A DNA stretch of 32,951 bases from Bacteroidales bacterium (lineage in GTDB: Bacteria > Bacteroidota > Bacteroidia > Bacteroidales > CAIWKO01). Positions within the stretch are counted from its first letter, which is position 1; each line of letters starts with the position of its first letter. The stretch lies in assembly GCA_035389045.1 (NCBI GenBank), contig DAOORA010000009.1, positions 62,001 through 94,951 of the forward strand, read 5' to 3'. The position numbers were made by a program, and so were the translations under genes. The notes under the pieces are model-generated. The model saw only the letters and a list, made by a program, of their open reading frames with translations. It was not told the origin of the DNA and ran no database searches. This document shows positions 25,239 through 32,950 of this stretch, piece after piece.

Positions 25239-25243
25239 AAAGC

Positions 25244-25315
25244 AAAAAAAGCCCCACAGAGTTTGCGGGGCTCAAGAGCAAATACTCTACGGCTTATAGC
25301 CTTGTTGTGATTTGC
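25244..25315 (-). ncRNA. tracrRNA
   Basis: Minus strand: anti-repeat GCAAATCACAAC (perfect complement of the first 12 nt of the repeat), nexus AAGGCT-ATA-AGCC, hairpin AGAGTA-TT-TGCTCT and terminator AGCCCCGCA-AACTC-TGTGGGGCT-TTTTTT. TATATTTG promoter box just upstream at 25327-25320. Confidence 0.88.
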
Positions 25316-25355
25316 GCAGCAAATATAATTAAAATAATTAGACAAAAATAATATT

Positions 25356-28300
25356 ATGGCAAAAAAATTAGGATTAGATCTCGGAACAAACTCAATTGGT
25401 TGGGCAATAAGAGAAAGTGATGTAGATTTAAGAAGGCAATTTCTCATGGATTATAAAAGCTACAATGAAGAGACTGACAAAGACAAAAAAACACTTAATA
25501 ATGAATTTGTCGATTATGGAGTTGTAATATTTAAAAAAGGGGTTGGTGACGGAAAGAATGGAGAATTTTCATTGGCTGCTGAAAGAAGAACAAACAGAAG
25601 CAAGCGCAGATTATATAATGCAAAACGATACAGAAAATGGGAATTGCTTAAAATCCTCATTGAAAATAACATGTGTCCTCTAACACTGGAGGAGCTTCGT
25701 TTGTGGAGCATTGGTAACTGGAAGCAACTGGAAGGAAAATACAAGAATTCTGGAAGGATTTACCCAATAAAAAATGAATTTTTCCAGCAATGGCTTGCTT
25801 TTGATCCTACATTTTTTGGACAAAAAGGGATTTCAAATAACAATAACCTTATAAGAAAAAATCCATACGACCTACGTTGTGAACTGTTAGAAAATGAGGA
25901 AGAAAATGACAATCTAAAAAAATTGAAAACAGGCAGGGCATTCTATCATTTAGTGCAAAGACGAGGTTTTAAATCTAGCAGAAAAAGCGGGCAATCTGCT
26001 TATGCAAAAAATGAAGATATTGAAAAATTAAAATCAGAAAAGCCCGATTTTCAAATTTCAATTTTGGCAAAAAACAAATTAGATAACGGGGAACGCTTTC
26101 GTTCAAGTGGTGTAATCCAAAGGAAATACTTTGAAGATGAATTTTATGCAATTTGCAGAAAACAAAATCTCAGTAATGATTTAACAGAAAAACTTCATAA
26201 TGCGATTTATTTTGTCAGGCCACTCCGGTCACAAAAAGGATTAGTTGGTAACTGCACATTAGAAAAAGGTAAGCCAAGAATACCCATAAGCCATCCAAAA
26301 TTTGAAGAGTTCAGAGCATTACAGTTTATAAATAATATTAAATGGCGAGAAAATGGTAAAAAAGAATTTATCGAAATACCCATGCTTCTAAAGAAAAAGA
26401 TATTTGAAGAATTATTTTTCAGAAAGTTAGAAAAAGGGCAAAACAAAGGAAAAATAAGCCTTGAAAACTATTTTAAATTTGAAGAAATAATTAAAGATTT
26501 TTCAGAAAATGGGCTTTATGAATTTAATTACAGAAATTTACCCAATGTATCTACTTGTCCAACGATTGCAGCATTAATGAACATATTTGATACAGATTGG
26601 AGTGAGAAATTCATACAAGACAAAAACAAAATCGGCATTAATTGGGACGGTCTGCAAATTAAGTACACTCCAAAATATGGCAAAATAAAGAGAAAGATAA
26701 AAGATGGTAAAAAATTGTATGTTAATAAGGACTTTTGGGAAAAAACATTAAGAATTGATGATATATGGCATTTACTGTTTGATTATATACAAACTAACGA
26801 TAATGCTGAAAAATTAGAAAAATTTTGCACTGAAGTATTAGGCTTTGACGAAAATAAAGCAAAAGCATTTTCATCTATTGATATACCACAAGGCTATGGT
26901 TCATTAAGTTACAAAGCTATTTCAAATATTCTCCCATTTCTGCGAGATGGTATCATCTATTCCGAAGCAGTATTATTTGCTAACTTAAAAAAAGCCTTAG
27001 GGCCTCAATTTGAAGAAAAAAAAGAACAAGCAAAAATAATAATTACTAAAACTATTAAAGAGACAGGAGAAAAAAAGGAATTACTGAATATCACAAATGG
27101 GCTTATACAAAACTTTTTCGCCGATACTGAAATGACTCACGCAAAAGGTTTTGATGACATCATCAAAGAGATGGCCTGGCATGACACCACTAACAAACTG
27201 AAAAAACACTTTGGCGAAAACGATTGGAATAAAAAAACTGAAACCGAGAAAAAAACAATTGAGAATGAAGTTTTAACTTTATATCTGCGCTTTTTAAACG
27301 GTGAACAAAGCAAAGACGAAAAAGCTTCTGCAAAAAATAATAAGGAACCAGATATAGATTATTACAAAATACCACGACTTGATGAAGCAATTAAACTCAA
27401 CCTGAAATCCGGTTTAAATCTGGATGATAAAAACTTGAAATATTTGTATCACCCTTCTGATATTGAAATGTACCCTGCATCAAAAACAGAAAAAGAATTT
27501 GAAATAAATGGGTATAATCATTTCATCAAATTATTGGAAAGCCCCCAGCCCCCGAGCAAAGGCTGGAAAAACCCAATGGCTATGCGAACCCTTCATGAAC
27601 TCAGGCATCTTTTAAATTATCTTTTAAAAATCGGAAAGATTGACAAGGATACCAAAATAATCGTGGAAATGGCGAGGGAATTAAATACTAAAAACTATCG
27701 AAAAGCATATTCAAATTGGACTAAAGATAAGGATAATGAAAATATTAATTGTAAAAAAAGCATACTTGAATTATATGGAATTACAGACCCATCTATAAAT
27801 GATTATAATAAATACCGAATAGCAGTTGAACAAATAATAAACCATGAATTATCTGAAAATAAAAATCCAATATTCTATCATAAGTATAATAATTTCATAG
27901 AAACCTATCTGAAAACAATAAGCATCTCTGATAAAAATAAAGATATTTTGATGAGCGATGAATTTTATGATTATTTAATGTATCTTATTTTAAATAGAGA
28001 CGAATTTAGAAAGATGCTTAATTTCAAAATACCTAATACAAGCAAATGGTATCATCAATTAATATCTACTTCATTTAATTTTGACAAAAAGCGAAAAGAA
28101 TTATTGGAAATGCTTTTAAAATACAGATTATGGAAAGAACAAAAATTTCAGTGTTTTTATACTGGACAATATATTTCACTTACGCAATTATTTTCAGCTA
28201 ACTATCAAATCGAACATACAATTCCGAGAAGCATTTCTTTTGATTCCGAACTAAAAAATGTTACAGTATGTGATTCTATTTATAATAGTCAGGTTAAAAA

Positions 28301-30146
28301 AAACTGTTTCCCAACCGATTGTCTTAATTATTATGAAATGAGAGAATGTAAAACGGTTAATGGTGTCATGAAATGCTCACCAATAAAAGAAAGAGTTGAC
28401 AAAAATATCCTACCAAAAGTTAAAGAATTATACACAAGAATTAAAAATCTTGAGGTTATCAACATTGGATTAATTGATGAAGAAAAGAGAAATGCAAATA
28501 TTCAATTAAGGCATTATTTACAATTTGAATTGGAATATTGGGAAAAAAAACTTATAACTTTTACAATAACTAAAGATAAGTGGAAAGATAAATGGAAAAA
28601 CAGCCAATTAACAGACACTCAAATAATTTCAAAATATGCACGAGCTTATCTAAAAACAGTTTTCGAAAAAGTTGATGTTCAAAAAGGAACCGTTACCAAT
28701 GTTTTTAAAAAAATATATCAAATAAAAGGTGATGAACAAAAAGACCGCAGTAAACACAGCCATCATGCAGTTGATGCTGCCGTGCTAACTTTAATACCCG
28801 GGTCTGCCATACGGGAAGCCATTCTGAAAGAATACTACAAAGCTGAAGAAAACATGCAGAAATACCACACAATACCATACGAAAAATACATTTCATCGCA
28901 TGTTCACGATATTGAAAATAACATCCTCATCAACCACATTGTGCATAATAAAACTCTAACTGCAACACTCAAAAACATAAGAAAACGTGGCAATAAAACC
29001 GGCAAAACAGCTAATGGAGATAGTATCAAGGGGCAGCTTCATGAGGAAACTTATTTAGGGGCAATTAAACCAAATATATTTAATGTAAAAGGTAAAGCAA
29101 TTAAAGATTCTGAAACCGGCAAATATCTAAATAAACAGATAAATGGAGATGATGTTATTTGGGTTGTTCAAAGAAAAAATATTAATGATGTAGATATAGA
29201 TGCCATTGTTGATGAAGCCTTAAAAAATCATATTAAATCACAGTTGGCAAATAAAATCGAAATTAAGGATGTTAAAGACTTTGCAGACAAGCAGATTCGA
29301 CATATTCGATTCAAGAAATTTTCGCCTTCTTATGACAAAACTTTAAAAGTAAAATCACACACATACAGCTCAAAATACAAACATAAATTGCTATATCTGA
29401 CGAATAACGATTCTAATTATCTATGCTTATTTTATAAAGGAGTAGATAATAGAAATCGAGAAATCAAAGCATTTAAATTCATAAACCTATTTGAATTCTC
29501 AAATTTGGAGAATAAAAAAATATCTTCACTGTCTAGTAATCCAAAATATAATGTTTTTATTAAAATCAATAGGAACAACGAATTTCATTTGTATTTAACA
29601 AATATTATTAATGTTGGGCAAAAAGTAATTATGTATAAAGATTCAATTGATGAAATTGCCAGGCAAAACTTAGTAGATTTATCTAATAAAATATATCGTG
29701 TTTATAAATTTAACAATTCAGGTACTGATTATATCTTTTTACAAAATATAATCGAAGCTAGAAATGATGATGATTTAAAAAAAGCAGGGTATAAAACTGA
29801 AGGTGAAACTGAATATAATCCTTCAAAATACCAACCCAGGCTTAAATTAAGTGCCGATAACTTAAATTGTCTTTTTGAAAATATTGATTTTGAAATAAAA
29901 CCAGATGGTACAATTAATTGGAAATCAGATAATAATAATTCTACTGAAGAACCTTCTGCCCAATATACTTCACCAAAAAAAATCACAGTATCTCAATCAC
30001 CAGAAGATGCCGAAAATTCCCAACTCGATTACTGGGCAAAACTCACGCCCGAACAACGATTTGAAAAGTTTCTGGAATTAATGAACCGCTTCTACAAATT
30101 TGTTAAACCCGATTGGTCAACAAAAAAAATAATCCTTGATTTATGA
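25356..30146 (+). CDS. cas9: type II-C CRISPR nuclease Cas9 (1596 aa) with C-terminal extension
   Basis: RuvC-I LGLDLGTNSIGWA, Arg-rich bridge helix, RuvC-II IVEMAREL, HNH CFYTG...IEHTIPRS...N...YNSQVK and RuvC-III HSHHAVDA. Catalytic residues appear intact. Confidence 0.97.
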   Translation: MAKKLGLDLGTNSIGWAIRESDVDLRRQFLMDYKSYNEETDKDKKTLNNEFVDYGVVIFKKGVGDGKNGEFSLAAERRTNRSKRRLYNAKRYRKWELLKILIENNMCPLTLEELRLWSIGNWKQLEGKYKNSGRIYPIKNEFFQQWLAFDPTFFGQKGISNNNNLIRKNPYDLRCELLENEEENDNLKKLKTGRAFYHLVQRRGFKSSRKSGQSAYAKNEDIEKLKSEKPDFQISILAKNKLDNGERFRSSGVIQRKYFEDEFYAICRKQNLSNDLTEKLHNAIYFVRPLRSQKGLVGNCTLEKGKPRIPISHPKFEEFRALQFINNIKWRENGKKEFIEIPMLLKKKIFEELFFRKLEKGQNKGKISLENYFKFEEIIKDFSENGLYEFNYRNLPNVSTCPTIAALMNIFDTDWSEKFIQDKNKIGINWDGLQIKYTPKYGKIKRKIKDGKKLYVNKDFWEKTLRIDDIWHLLFDYIQTNDNAEKLEKFCTEVLGFDENKAKAFSSIDIPQGYGSLSYKAISNILPFLRDGIIYSEAVLFANLKKALGPQFEEKKEQAKIIITKTIKETGEKKELLNITNGLIQNFFADTEMTHAKGFDDIIKEMAWHDTTNKLKKHFGENDWNKKTETEKKTIENEVLTLYLRFLNGEQSKDEKASAKNNKEPDIDYYKIPRLDEAIKLNLKSGLNLDDKNLKYLYHPSDIEMYPASKTEKEFEINGYNHFIKLLESPQPPSKGWKNPMAMRTLHELRHLLNYLLKIGKIDKDTKIIVEMARELNTKNYRKAYSNWTKDKDNENINCKKSILELYGITDPSINDYNKYRIAVEQIINHELSENKNPIFYHKYNNFIETYLKTISISDKNKDILMSDEFYDYLMYLILNRDEFRKMLNFKIPNTSKWYHQLISTSFNFDKKRKELLEMLLKYRLWKEQKFQCFYTGQYISLTQLFSANYQIEHTIPRSISFDSELKNVTVCDSIYNSQVKKNCFPTDCLNYYEMRECKTVNGVMKCSPIKERVDKNILPKVKELYTRIKNLEVINIGLIDEEKRNANIQLRHYLQFELEYWEKKLITFTITKDKWKDKWKNSQLTDTQIISKYARAYLKTVFEKVDVQKGTVTNVFKKIYQIKGDEQKDRSKHSHHAVDAAVLTLIPGSAIREAILKEYYKAEENMQKYHTIPYEKYISSHVHDIENNILINHIVHNKTLTATLKNIRKRGNKTGKTANGDSIKGQLHEETYLGAIKPNIFNVKGKAIKDSETGKYLNKQINGDDVIWVVQRKNINDVDIDAIVDEALKNHIKSQLANKIEIKDVKDFADKQIRHIRFKKFSPSYDKTLKVKSHTYSSKYKHKLLYLTNNDSNYLCLFYKGVDNRNREIKAFKFINLFEFSNLENKKISSLSSNPKYNVFIKINRNNEFHLYLTNIINVGQKVIMYKDSIDEIARQNLVDLSNKIYRVYKFNNSGTDYIFLQNIIEARNDDDLKKAGYKTEGETEYNPSKYQPRLKLSADNLNCLFENIDFEIKPDGTINWKSDNNNSTEEPSAQYTSPKKITVSQSPEDAENSQLDYWAKLTPEQRFEKFLELMNRFYKFVKPDWSTKKIILDL

Positions 30147-30613
30147 ATATAACACACCCGGCACATCAGGAAATGCTCGCTGCTTTACTCGAAAACAAGG
30201 TGGATTTTATCCTTGTCGGCGGATATGCCGTGATATACCACGGCTATATCAGAACTACAGGAGATATGGACGTATGGCTGCGCCCCACCGAAAACAACAA
30301 AACAAAACTGATAGAAGTATTTACACGATTGAAATTCAATCCTGACGACATCAACCTTATTGAAAAATTAGACTTCAGCGGCGTTGTAATTTTCCATATA
30401 GGTGCAGAACCTGACCGTATTGATTTTTTAACCCGTGTTGATGGATTAAATTTCGAAGAAGCCTTTAACACCAGGGTTTTTCTTAAAATAGGTGATTATG
30501 AAATTCCCATCCTGAAATTTGAGGATTTGATAACAAACAAAATAATCACCGGCCGCCTCAAAGACAAAGCTGATATAGAACAACTCAATATGATCAGGAA
30601 AAGAAAGAAATAG
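30143..30613 (+). CDS. minimal nucleotidyltransferase (DUF6036/AbiEii-like, Pol-beta superfamily)
   Basis: LVGGYAVIYHGYIRTTGDMDVW (GG...DxD), RIDFL and DLITNKIITGRLKDKADIEQL. The start overlaps the cas9 stop (ATGA). Confidence 0.85.
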   Translation: MNITHPAHQEMLAALLENKVDFILVGGYAVIYHGYIRTTGDMDVWLRPTENNKTKLIEVFTRLKFNPDDINLIEKLDFSGVVIFHIGAEPDRIDFLTRVDGLNFEEAFNTRVFLKIGDYEIPILKFEDLITNKIITGRLKDKADIEQLNMIRKRKK

Positions 30614-30700: not shown

Positions 30701-31354
30701 ATGCATTTTGAACCGGAACACTGCTACCATATCTTCAACCAAGGCAATAATAGAGAGTTGATATTCTTTAACAGAGAGAATTATTTTTTCTTTCTGAAAA
30801 AAATTGAAACGCATATTTTACCTTTTGCAGATGTGCTGGCCTATTGCCTGATGCCAAATCATTTTCATCTGATGGTGTATACTAGTCATCAGATGACTTC
30901 CCAACAGATTGTTCCACATCAGGAGAAATTAAGTCATCAGATGACTTCCCAGCTTACTCATCAGATGACTTCAAGCCATCAGATGAGTAAGGGTAAACAA
31001 ACTTTCGTACAATCCATCGCCATCATGCTGCGGTCCTACACCCGTGCTGTCAATATTCAGGAAAACCGAAGCGGCTCTTTATTCAAGCCACATACAAAAG
31101 CCTTATGTCTTACAAATAATTCAACGATTACACCATCCTTTTCCGACACCATCCATGGCGCATTGATTAATATACCATACCCGGATAAAGAATATCCGAA
31201 GCTTTGTTTCAATTATATTCACAACAATCCTGTGAAGGCAGGTCTGGTTAAAAATGCCAATGAATGGGAGTTCTCCTCCTACTGCGATTATTATGAAAAC
31301 CGGCAAAGTAACATCATAAATCATATGAGGGCAAAAGAATGTGGATTGATTTAA
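30701..31354 (+). mobile_element. REP-associated tyrosine transposase (RAYT, Y1 HUH family)
   Basis: YHIFNQGNNRELIF, AYCLMPNHFHL (HUH), RSGSLF, YIHNNPVKAGL (catalytic Tyr) and WEFSSY. Confidence 0.85.
30884..30988. repeat. four 15-bp palindromic repeats inside the RAYT gene
   Basis: AGTCATCAGATGACT (30884, 30932), ACTCATCAGATGACT (30956) and AGCCATCAGATGAGT (30974). All are in frame and encode SHQMT-like units. Confidence 0.85.
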
Positions 31355-31521: not shown

Positions 31522-32792
<1,271 letters not shown>

Positions 32793-32903: not shown

Positions 32904-32950
32904 GCTGTTATCAATACGTCAAAGATAAGAATTAGAGAGCAAATCACAAC
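32904..32950 (-). CRISPR. first repeat of a type II-C CRISPR array (array presumably continues beyond the window)
   Basis: 47-nt GTTGTGATTTGCTCTCTAATTCTTATCTTTGACGTATTGATAACAGC on the minus strand, a typical Bacteroidota II-C repeat shape, and it matches the tracrRNA anti-repeat. Only one copy is visible. Confidence 0.85.

Follow-up and report, generated by a model that had tools for sequence, protein, structure and literature searches.

Why should a Cas9 protein run on past the end of its last domain, and why should its stop codon be shared with the start of a nucleotidyltransferase gene? The question is raised by a type II-C-like CRISPR locus in a stretch of 32,951 nucleotides from a Bacteroidales bacterium (GenBank assembly GCA_035389045.1, contig DAOORA010000009.1, positions 62,001–94,951), here called the window. 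Its cas9 open reading frame (ORF; 25356–30146, plus strand) specifies 1596 amino acids, the last 74 of which lie beyond the body of the protein, and the cas9 stop shares the tetranucleotide ATGA (30143–30146) with the start of an ORF for a 156-residue nucleotidyltransferase (NTase; 30143–30613). A preliminary description, made from the sequence alone, had proposed that a small antitoxin-like partner of the NTase has been grafted onto Cas9. We find that the fusion is real and recurrent and is not a sequencing artefact. As to what it does, we consider it somewhat probable (roughly 0.55), by analogy with characterized systems, that a type II-C locus has captured, between its cas9 and cas1 genes, a toxin–antitoxin pair resembling MenAT1 and that Cas9 carries the antitoxin.

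The effector was identified as Cas9 by NCBIfam model TIGR01865 (318.4 bits against a cut-off of 100) and by the Pfam models HNH_4, Cas9_a and RuvC_III. To locate its ordinary C-terminus, residues 1380–1596 were compared with 5.8 billion proteins. Of the 23 other Cas9 proteins matched, 18 end at the equivalent of W1522 or at most about four residues beyond it (motif ...DFEIKPDG...), and the remaining five bear the same C-terminal extension as the window protein. The frame thus exceeds the usual Cas9 end by 74 residues, as the preliminary description had maintained, and the ATGA overlap with the 156-residue ORF is likewise seen in the sequence. The description had also noted that no methionine lies near the start of the helical segment of this tail; in the tail as a whole, no in-frame ATG, GTG or TTG precedes the late methionine of the segment ELMNRF. 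No Pfam or NCBIfam model matched the tail at E ≤ 1.

The junction at position 29922 is crossed without a single difference by Logan contigs from two runs belonging to other studies, X2 (29728–30059) and X3 (29777–30008). A stop near 29925, which the preliminary description had named as evidence against the fusion, was looked for and not found in this lineage. A contig from a metatranscriptome (RNA library), X6, is identical to the window over 29968–30145. Run X1, a possible source sample of the window, was not counted as independent. Over the last 60 codons of the Cas9 frame the ratio of nonsynonymous to synonymous substitution rates (dN/dS) was 0.12–0.30, although the counts are small. A further X3 contig comes from a relative in which cas9 stops just past the protospacer-adjacent-motif (PAM)-interacting domain and is followed directly by the start of cas1; relatives lacking both tail and NTase therefore coexist with the fused form.

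Comparison with six metagenomic relatives (contigs L008–L013) revealed a mosaic with a sharply placed boundary. In these contigs the tail ends Cas9 proteins of 1325, 1525 and 1970 residues as well as two fragments cut at their 5' side, and each fused Cas9 is followed by an ATGA-overlapping 156-residue NTase and, on contigs that extend far enough, by cas1 and cas2. Between lineages the Cas9 bodies share 23–35% protein identity, whereas Cas1 is 82–87% and Cas2 90–95% identical to the window proteins; the corresponding values are 83–97% for the last 60 residues of the tail and 91–98% for the NTase (73–76% for L012). At the DNA level, homology to the window starts between 29924 and 29933 in all six loci and extends at about 83–90% to the end of the window, with nothing aligning upstream of the junction. 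Among the six contigs themselves homology reaches slightly further upstream, starting with the codons that specify ...LGNISL, a C-terminal motif of Cas9. Comparing sequences by hand, we found K1523 at the position of Met1 in a free-standing family member (P0002); the joint therefore corresponds to the old start of the partner gene. Partner and NTase stay on the adaptation side of the locus, with cas1, cas2 and the repeat, when the Cas9 bodies differ. In L010 and L044 the Cas9 proteins are 58% identical and the NTases belong to different subclades: the tail and NTase start of L010 show about 91% DNA identity to the window, and the NTase of L044 has 41% protein identity. Because the chromosomal flank of a relative (G410) differs from that of the window, with which it shares nothing, we do not claim that the exchange took place in situ.

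The fusion is not confined to these contigs. One genome per species was scanned with an alignment of the NTase and the best 80 loci were kept; they come from Bacteroidota, Planctomycetota, Acidobacteriota, Thermodesulfobacteriota and other phyla. Matches to cas genes were found in 13 of these 80, twelve in Bacteroidota and one, L046, in Balneolota, and in none of the other 67. The junction is intact in 11 cas9-linked loci, and in seven of them (L025, L027, L039, L043, L044, L047 and L048) the partner is fused to Cas9; the other two cas-matched loci are L028, which is cut, and L049, which retains only a remnant of cas1. Clustering at 50% identity separated the fused Cas9 bodies into eight groups, and fused and unfused members are mixed in one of them; the same tail with its NTase is accordingly found on at least eight Cas9 lineages that are less than 50% identical. 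Among 40 relatives of the window genome, two further species of its genus carry the fused tail and the NTase on yet other Cas9 bodies, and three relatives have a tail-less cas9 with cas1 within about 10 bases. The proposal that the small partner was grafted in frame onto Cas9 is borne out by these three sets of loci, and a one-off read-through does not account for them. A tree of 90 NTase rows places every CRISPR-linked copy in a single Bacteroidota clade of 41 rows (support 99/95), where 22 free copies, set amid unrelated housekeeping genes, are interleaved with them. The fused state requires at least five changes on this tree.

Two loci are atypical. The 1612-base metagenome contig L014 shows a cas9 end (...LGNIKPA), a stop, an unfused 80-residue partner, a frameshifted NTase and then CRISPR repeats, with neither cas1 nor cas2 between the NTase and the repeats; it may represent a variant in decay or an error due to low coverage. 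In L049 (6522–6638), partner and NTase are followed by a 39-residue cas1 remnant and preceded by a DUF2130 gene, and the pair seems to have outlived its CRISPR locus.

We next consider the tail in its own right. The preliminary description had stated that small proteins often lie directly upstream of DUF6036-type NTases as a two-gene module, and this holds widely. The tail alone, used as a query, retrieved two Met-initiated proteins of 71 and 74 residues (63–67% identity) and, in a sample of 400 genomes of the phylum, four ORFs of 64–68 residues with non-CRISPR surroundings in four of four other genomes, each overlapping the start of a 147–156-residue homologue of the window NTase. Its matches are, in other words, stand-alone genes upstream of NTases. 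A profile built from ten partner sequences and run against 1.84 billion cluster representatives yielded 1034 representatives at E ≤ 0.001, the best 150 all having 40–131 residues; 60–90 residues is typical of the family. In the 80 NTase loci, a profile iterated over all six-frame segments found one partner segment per locus, always abutting the NTase, in 78 cases (77 upstream, one downstream). Of the two misses, L044 carries a partner recognizable by eye and L068 is cut 56 nucleotides upstream of the NTase. Partner and NTase are obligately adjacent across phyla, and, judged by its sequence, the tail is a member of this unnamed partner family.

With a deeper profile the family was found in 60 of the 400 other genomes of the phylum sample. 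All 71 matches in those 60 genomes lie in frames of 47–169 residues, and that of the window is the sole match in a long frame. The gene is publicly annotated as 'hypothetical protein', and 103 partner sequences showed no consistent Pfam family, HEPN models included. A tyrosine (Y26 of the aligned segment) is near-invariant, being present in at least 90% of the 103 sequences. No phage record matched, and PHROGs gave two weak families of unknown function, which offers nothing in favour of a phage origin.

Several candidate relatives and forms of the partner were set aside. A ribbon-helix-helix fold, suggested by the sequence pattern on reading only, found no Pfam support. P0001 (89 residues, no methionine) probably does not represent a free-standing gene: by hand comparison it matches the C-terminal sequence of the Cas9 proteins of L012 and L133, and is probably a fragment of a Cas9 of that type. 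In L057, L067, L069 and L079 the apparent long partner fusions are no proteins but frames free of stops in GC-rich DNA. A candidate direct fusion of partner and NTase was met once, in a metagenome-assembled genome of the Lewinellaceae (L089, 5776–6426), where both lie in one frame of 217–222 residues. We also observed a short EPxxxY-like motif in the N-terminal stretch of the partner, before the first predicted strand (L025–L049; window 29940–29966). Fused and free partners alike have it conserved in the Bacteroidota clade to which the CRISPR-linked copies belong; distant free-standing members, for example L003, lack it.

The NTase passes the Pfam thresholds of DUF6036 (PF19502; 31.1 versus 23.6 bits) and DUF2204 (24.1 versus 20.3 bits), and its database homologues carry PF19502. 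The GG...DxD motif that had been pointed out as intact in the 156-residue protein is invariant in alignments of the family. A weak match to the PADLOC model of AbiEii was obtained (E = 0.00085). When a profile of 121 NTase sequences was compared with the PDB, the one meaningful match was the MenT1 toxin (8an4, 8an5 and 8rr5; E = 0.0037). In the alignment with 8an4, residues T39, D41, D43, K133 and D144 of the window protein fall on T39, D41, D43, K137 and D152 of MenT1, so that, in a sequence alignment at this E value, the MenT-type catalytic set Thr/Ser, Asp(-x-Asp), Lys and Asp appears to be kept. According to the parts of PMC10435456 that deal with them, these five MenT1 residues are conserved catalytic residues, and the substitutions D41A, K137A and D152A abolish toxicity. 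Residues G26, G27, R37, T39, D41, D43, W45, K133, R138, D141 and D144 are kept in all 19 CRISPR-linked NTases, and dN/dS of the NTase was 0.07–0.23. The genome (96.3% complete) contains a single copy of the NTase and a single copy of the partner. A much longer form exists on a Fibrella plasmid (L129; CP155474.1, 39608–41755), where the annotation 'DUF6036 family nucleotidyltransferase' is given to a protein of 635 residues; a 75-residue hypothetical protein precedes it, and an annotated AbiEi/AbiEii pair adjoins it.

The resemblance to MenAT1 (8AN4, 8AN5) extends to gene organization. In the same parts of PMC10435456, the MenA1 antitoxin is described as a 68-residue protein without a DNA-binding domain that is encoded upstream of menT1 and contacts two toxin protomers, and MenT-type enzymes are described as tRNA-modifying toxins that act on RNA 3' ends; an excerpt of PMC11375011 adds that MenA1 induces auto-phosphorylation of MenT1 at T39. 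In the window, too, a protein segment of about 65 residues without a recognizable DNA-binding domain directly precedes a short NTase. The differences are that the NTase has 156 residues here and 196 in MenAT1, that it belongs to Pfam DUF6036/DUF2204 and not to DUF1814/AbiEii, that the partner has no detectable sequence similarity to solved chains, MenA1 included, and that the partner is part of Cas9. Judged by sequence, gene layout and catalytic set match MenAT1, whereas Pfam places the NTase outside AbiEii/DUF1814 in the strict sense. The toxin–antitoxin interpretation of the preliminary description is thus upheld by analogy, through obligate pairing, gene overlap and a remote MenT1 match with aligned catalytic residues. 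Its account of anatomy and evolution is supported, and its functional part stands as a well-motivated hypothesis.

In the reading that we favour, the captured module would consist of a partner of about 65 residues and an overlapping DUF6036 NTase of about 155 residues related to the transfer RNA (tRNA)-modifying MenT/AbiEii toxins, the partner ORF having become an in-frame continuation of cas9 at its 3' end. The tail would still bind and neutralize the NTase, as the 68-residue MenA1 does MenT1. Given the overlap between its start codon and the stop of cas9, the NTase is probably made by ribosomes coming directly off the 1596-codon cas9 ORF. The antidote would be present only as part of full-length Cas9; that it is the sole antidote is suggested by the single genomic copies of partner and NTase and by the lack of an internal start codon in the tail. 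No TAnnTTTG box was found on the plus strand between 28084 and 32371, which is weak evidence. A truncation of cas9, or a frame break at the junction, would leave existing NTase unneutralized and would in this way stabilize cas9 (an addiction effect). That all exchanged cas9 bodies are attached in frame at the same point would be accounted for by such a proposed release of the NTase.

We put forward more tentatively an extension of this idea, in which Cas9 itself is the antitoxin and the pair acts as a protein-level integrity checkpoint on cas9. Only ribosomes that complete an intact cas9 would make the antidote, which occupies the last 60 codons of the ORF, and the checkpoint would penalize frameshift, nonsense, insertion and deletion mutants of cas9. 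Cells usually escape self-targeting, or a block on plasmid uptake, through mutations of this kind. Destruction or sequestration of Cas9 by a phage factor could trigger the checkpoint as well, and each horizontally exchanged cas9 body would be forced by it to join in frame at one precise point, as is in fact observed.

A number of findings weigh against the favoured reading. In L038, L040, L045 and L046 the partner is a separate gene between cas9 and the NTase, and the unfused L038 shares its Cas9 cluster with fused members; given these loci and the equally unfused L014, the fusion is dispensable and could be neutral. Translational coupling implies that a premature stop in cas9 would lower synthesis of the NTase as well, which weakens a simple addiction effect. 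The cas1 remnant of L049 and the frameshifted NTase of L014 mean that the pair and the cas genes can part. Of the genomes in an even sample of the phylum, 68 besides that of the window encode a related Cas1, and the partner is on the cas1 contig in none of them; 13 genomes of the phylum sample have both, never on the same contig. Type II-C systems do not in general possess the partner–NTase module, and the arrangement is rare. With regard to the proteins themselves, the near-invariant tyrosine of the partner is replaced by Met or Leu in a CRISPR-linked subclade (L039, L043, L047 and L048), and with the partner profile of 103 sequences no antitoxin chain in the PDB was matched at E ≤ 10. The NTase scored 15.4 bits (E = 0.019) against Pfam AbiEii (DUF1814, PF08843), below the threshold of 22.5, and its resemblance to MenT1 in sequence is remote, at the level of the superfamily only. 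Full-text searches turned up no paper on DUF6036 and none relevant on DUF2204.

Of the rival explanations, the one that survives best, although we regard it as doubtful, holds that the pair is a selfish passenger: a mobile toxin–antitoxin cassette lodged between cas9 and cas1, whose fusion to and fission from Cas9 drift without consequence for CRISPR, the disordered N-terminus of the partner tolerating read-through from cas9. It has the same molecular mechanism as the favoured reading, and the one point of difference is whether selection maintains the link to Cas9. The free-standing state of 22 of the 41 NTases in the clade that holds the CRISPR-linked copies, among unrelated housekeeping genes, is what a passenger would show; so are the alternation of fused and unfused states among close relatives, the independent decay of pair and cas genes in L049 and L014, and the occurrence of distant homologues on ten plasmid records. 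Drift sits less easily with the frequency of the fusion, which is seen in seven of the 11 cas9-linked genome loci and in six of six close metagenomic relatives, and with a joint that is always at the partner N-terminus and is kept through exchanges of the cas9 body. Moreover, neither the 80 NTase loci nor the 71 partner matches in 60 other genomes of the phylum sample include a fusion to any other long protein.

We think it unlikely that the NTase is an accessory enzyme of the CRISPR system, recruited to Cas9 by the partner as an adaptor and adding nucleotides to RNA or DNA 3' ends, such as those of CRISPR RNA (crRNA), trans-activating CRISPR RNA (tracrRNA), tRNA or the cleaved target, so as to modulate interference or adaptation in a manner comparable to that of PcrIIC1. 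Most members of the family are unrelated to CRISPR (67 of the 80 NTase loci have no cas match; in none of the phylum sample's 60 other genomes with a partner is it on a cas1 contig), close Cas9 relatives work without the module, and genes that overlap and are obligately paired are the mark of a self-contained toxin–antitoxin pair. Rosetta-stone logic, applied to the fusion of Cas9 and partner, nevertheless points towards such a role, as does the position of the module inside the cas operon, where it remains with cas1 and cas2 while cas9 is exchanged. Precedents can be cited as well, at least from the portions of the sources that bear on them: accessory proteins of type II-C systems are known, namely PcrIIC1 (PMC12669027), and RNA 3' ends are the target of MenT-type enzymes (PMC10435456).

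A reversal of roles, as in type VII systems, is very improbable: the NTase would be the modifier or antitoxin and would nucleotidylate the partner domain, and hence Cas9, as MntA does HepT, thereby regulating Cas9. The minimal NTase size of the enzyme and the near-invariant tyrosine of the partner would fit this scheme, although the gene order with the small protein first and MenT1 as the best structural relative fit an NTase that is the toxin; besides, the partner has no HEPN or other toxin signature, in distinction from the HEPN-domain toxin of HepT/MntA, and replacement of the tyrosine in L039, L043, L047 and L048, which are CRISPR-linked, weakens it as a site of nucleotidylation. Finally, the chance is negligible that the apparent fusion is spurious, produced by faulty sequencing or assembly or by a single read-through of a stop at about 29925, although the window belongs to a metagenome-assembled genome and L007 and run X1 are probably the same data, because contigs of two other studies bridge the junction identically, the same architecture occurs in other metagenomes and in genomes of other species, and the frame is under purifying selection.

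Other characterized systems offer partial parallels to the favoured reading. AbiEi/AbiEii, a type IV toxin–antitoxin system acting in abortive infection, has an NTase of the same superfamily, as reflected in the weak matches to AbiEii models. AbiEii has about 250–300 residues and AbiEi is a large winged-helix regulator; here the partner has about 65 residues and the score of the NTase lies below the Pfam threshold. CreTA, in the sections of PMC9458426 and PMC12737573 devoted to it, is a CRISPR-regulated RNA toxin–antitoxin system that addicts cells to Cascade and safeguards the cas genes. As far as these sections go, the likeness is one of concept, neutralization of a toxin that depends on a CRISPR effector; CreTA is RNA-based, relies on guide-directed repression and belongs to type I, whereas a protein domain on Cas9 and an enzyme toxin are proposed here.

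The mosaic structure also has a precedent. In situ shuffling of cas9 against cas1 is described for type II-C loci of Flavobacteriales in the relevant portion of Makarova et al. 2025 (PMC12669027), and the contrast between Cas1 and Cas9 identities reported above is of the same kind. What distinguishes the present case, to the extent that this portion allows comparison, is that the breakpoint is mapped to the Cas9/partner junction and that partner and NTase stay with the adaptation side. The same source describes, in the text at hand, PcrIIC1 as an accessory PIN-domain nuclease that occurs in some II-C loci and works with Cas9. Like the NTase it is encoded by an extra gene within a II-C operon; it differs, on that description, in having another fold, in being a separate, unfused gene and in forming no pair of toxin–antitoxin type. 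In the accessible text of this 2025 classification of CRISPR systems (PMC12669027), PcrIIC1 is named as a II-C accessory and the word 'nucleotidyltransferase' does not occur; that of a December 2025 review on the coupling of toxin–antitoxin and CRISPR systems (PMC12737573) mentions no nucleotidyltransferase, type II-C or MenT. A natural Cas9 with a covalently attached toxin-partner domain was not found in the literature, subscription-only papers and supplementary tables lying outside the search.

Toxin–antitoxin pairs and CRISPR–Cas systems are already linked through RNA, in CreTA, and through shared ancestry. If the tail neutralizes the NTase, the window would provide a dependence of the cell on an intact cas9 gene at the level of protein, together with a portable pair of a tag of about 60 residues and a toxin that could stabilize Cas9 constructs or serve to build kill switches. 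It would also give a first functional handle on DUF6036 and on a partner family of about 1000 cluster representatives. The sharply mapped junction in itself offers a concrete case for studying the exchange of cas9 against a conserved adaptation module.

The features of the locus are collected in Table 1. On the plus strand the order is cas9, NTase, a RAYT/IS200-like gene, cas1, cas2 and the first CRISPR repeat. Assignment to type II-C follows from a Cas9 effector with RuvC and HNH domains, from the presence of cas1 and cas2, the NTase and the RAYT-like gene being the sole other ORFs between cas9 and the array, and from a Pfam/NCBIfam scan of the window ORFs in which neither csn2 nor cas4 was found in the operon. 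Upstream of the CRISPR locus lie ordinary chromosomal genes, including ligA, mnmA, a gene for a TonB-dependent receptor and genes for type IX secretion substrates.

Table 1. Parts of the CRISPR locus in the window, in order of position (coordinates of the window; aa, amino acids).
Feature	Position	Strand	Remarks
Candidate tracrRNA	25240–25320	-	Anti-repeat, small hairpin, GC-rich hairpin, then U run; transcribed away from cas9
Cas9 body, aa 1–1522, type II-C-like	25356–29921	+	Ends with PAM-interacting domain (...DFEIKPDGTINW)
Low-complexity linker, aa 1523–1537	29922–29966	+	Corresponds to N-terminal stretch of free-standing small protein
Partner (antitoxin-like) domain fused to Cas9, aa 1538–1596	29967–30143	+	Core motif SFEEA...YW..(L/S)TPEER
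156-aa DUF6036 minimal NTase	30143–30613	+	G26, G27, T39, D41, D43, K133 and D144 intact
RAYT/IS200-like Y1 (HUH) transposase-like gene	30701–31354	+	Inserted between NTase and cas1
cas1	31522–32454	+	Pfam Cas_Cas1, 1.3e-30
cas2	32406–32792	+	Pfam CRISPR_Cas2, 8.7e-16; 128 aa as listed
First 47-nucleotide CRISPR repeat	32904–32950	.	Contig and window end here

The candidate tracrRNA contains a 12-nucleotide exact complement of the repeat at 25304–25315, and its fold includes a terminator-like hairpin. Just 5' of it, on the minus strand, are two boxes of the form TAnnTTTG (25320–25327 and 25343–25350). L040 and L045 have the anti-repeat/hairpin segment directly upstream of cas9 as well; it was not found beside Cas9 bodies other than those of the window and of these two loci.

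The first repeat scored 34.2 bits against the Rfam model CRISPR-DR49, below its gathering score of 41. It is identical at 45 of 47 positions to the repeat of a 30-copy array in L009 (7741–10031) and to those of the arrays of L013 and L137. In the window, L009, L137 and L013, Cas9 proteins that are only 27–35% identical are paired with 47-nucleotide repeats of this 45/47 identity and with Cas1 proteins that are 82–87% identical, which raises the question of whether such different Cas9 proteins use the same crRNA repeat.

The RAYT-like gene gave 45.9 bits with the NCBIfam model REP_Tyr_transpos, below the cut-off of 80, and a match to Pfam Y1_Tnp below threshold (E = 0.0054). It is also present in L008, L012, L013 and L132, different genes occupy its place in L009, and it is absent from the distant cas loci among the NTase loci. 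The gene, limited to this subclade, contains a low-complexity run of SHQMTS-like repeats. The listed cas2 ORF overlaps cas1 by 49 bases; in relatives cas2 begins at a methionine equivalent to a start at about 32457, which gives a protein of 111 residues, and this comparison of sequences suggests that the shorter form is probably the real one.

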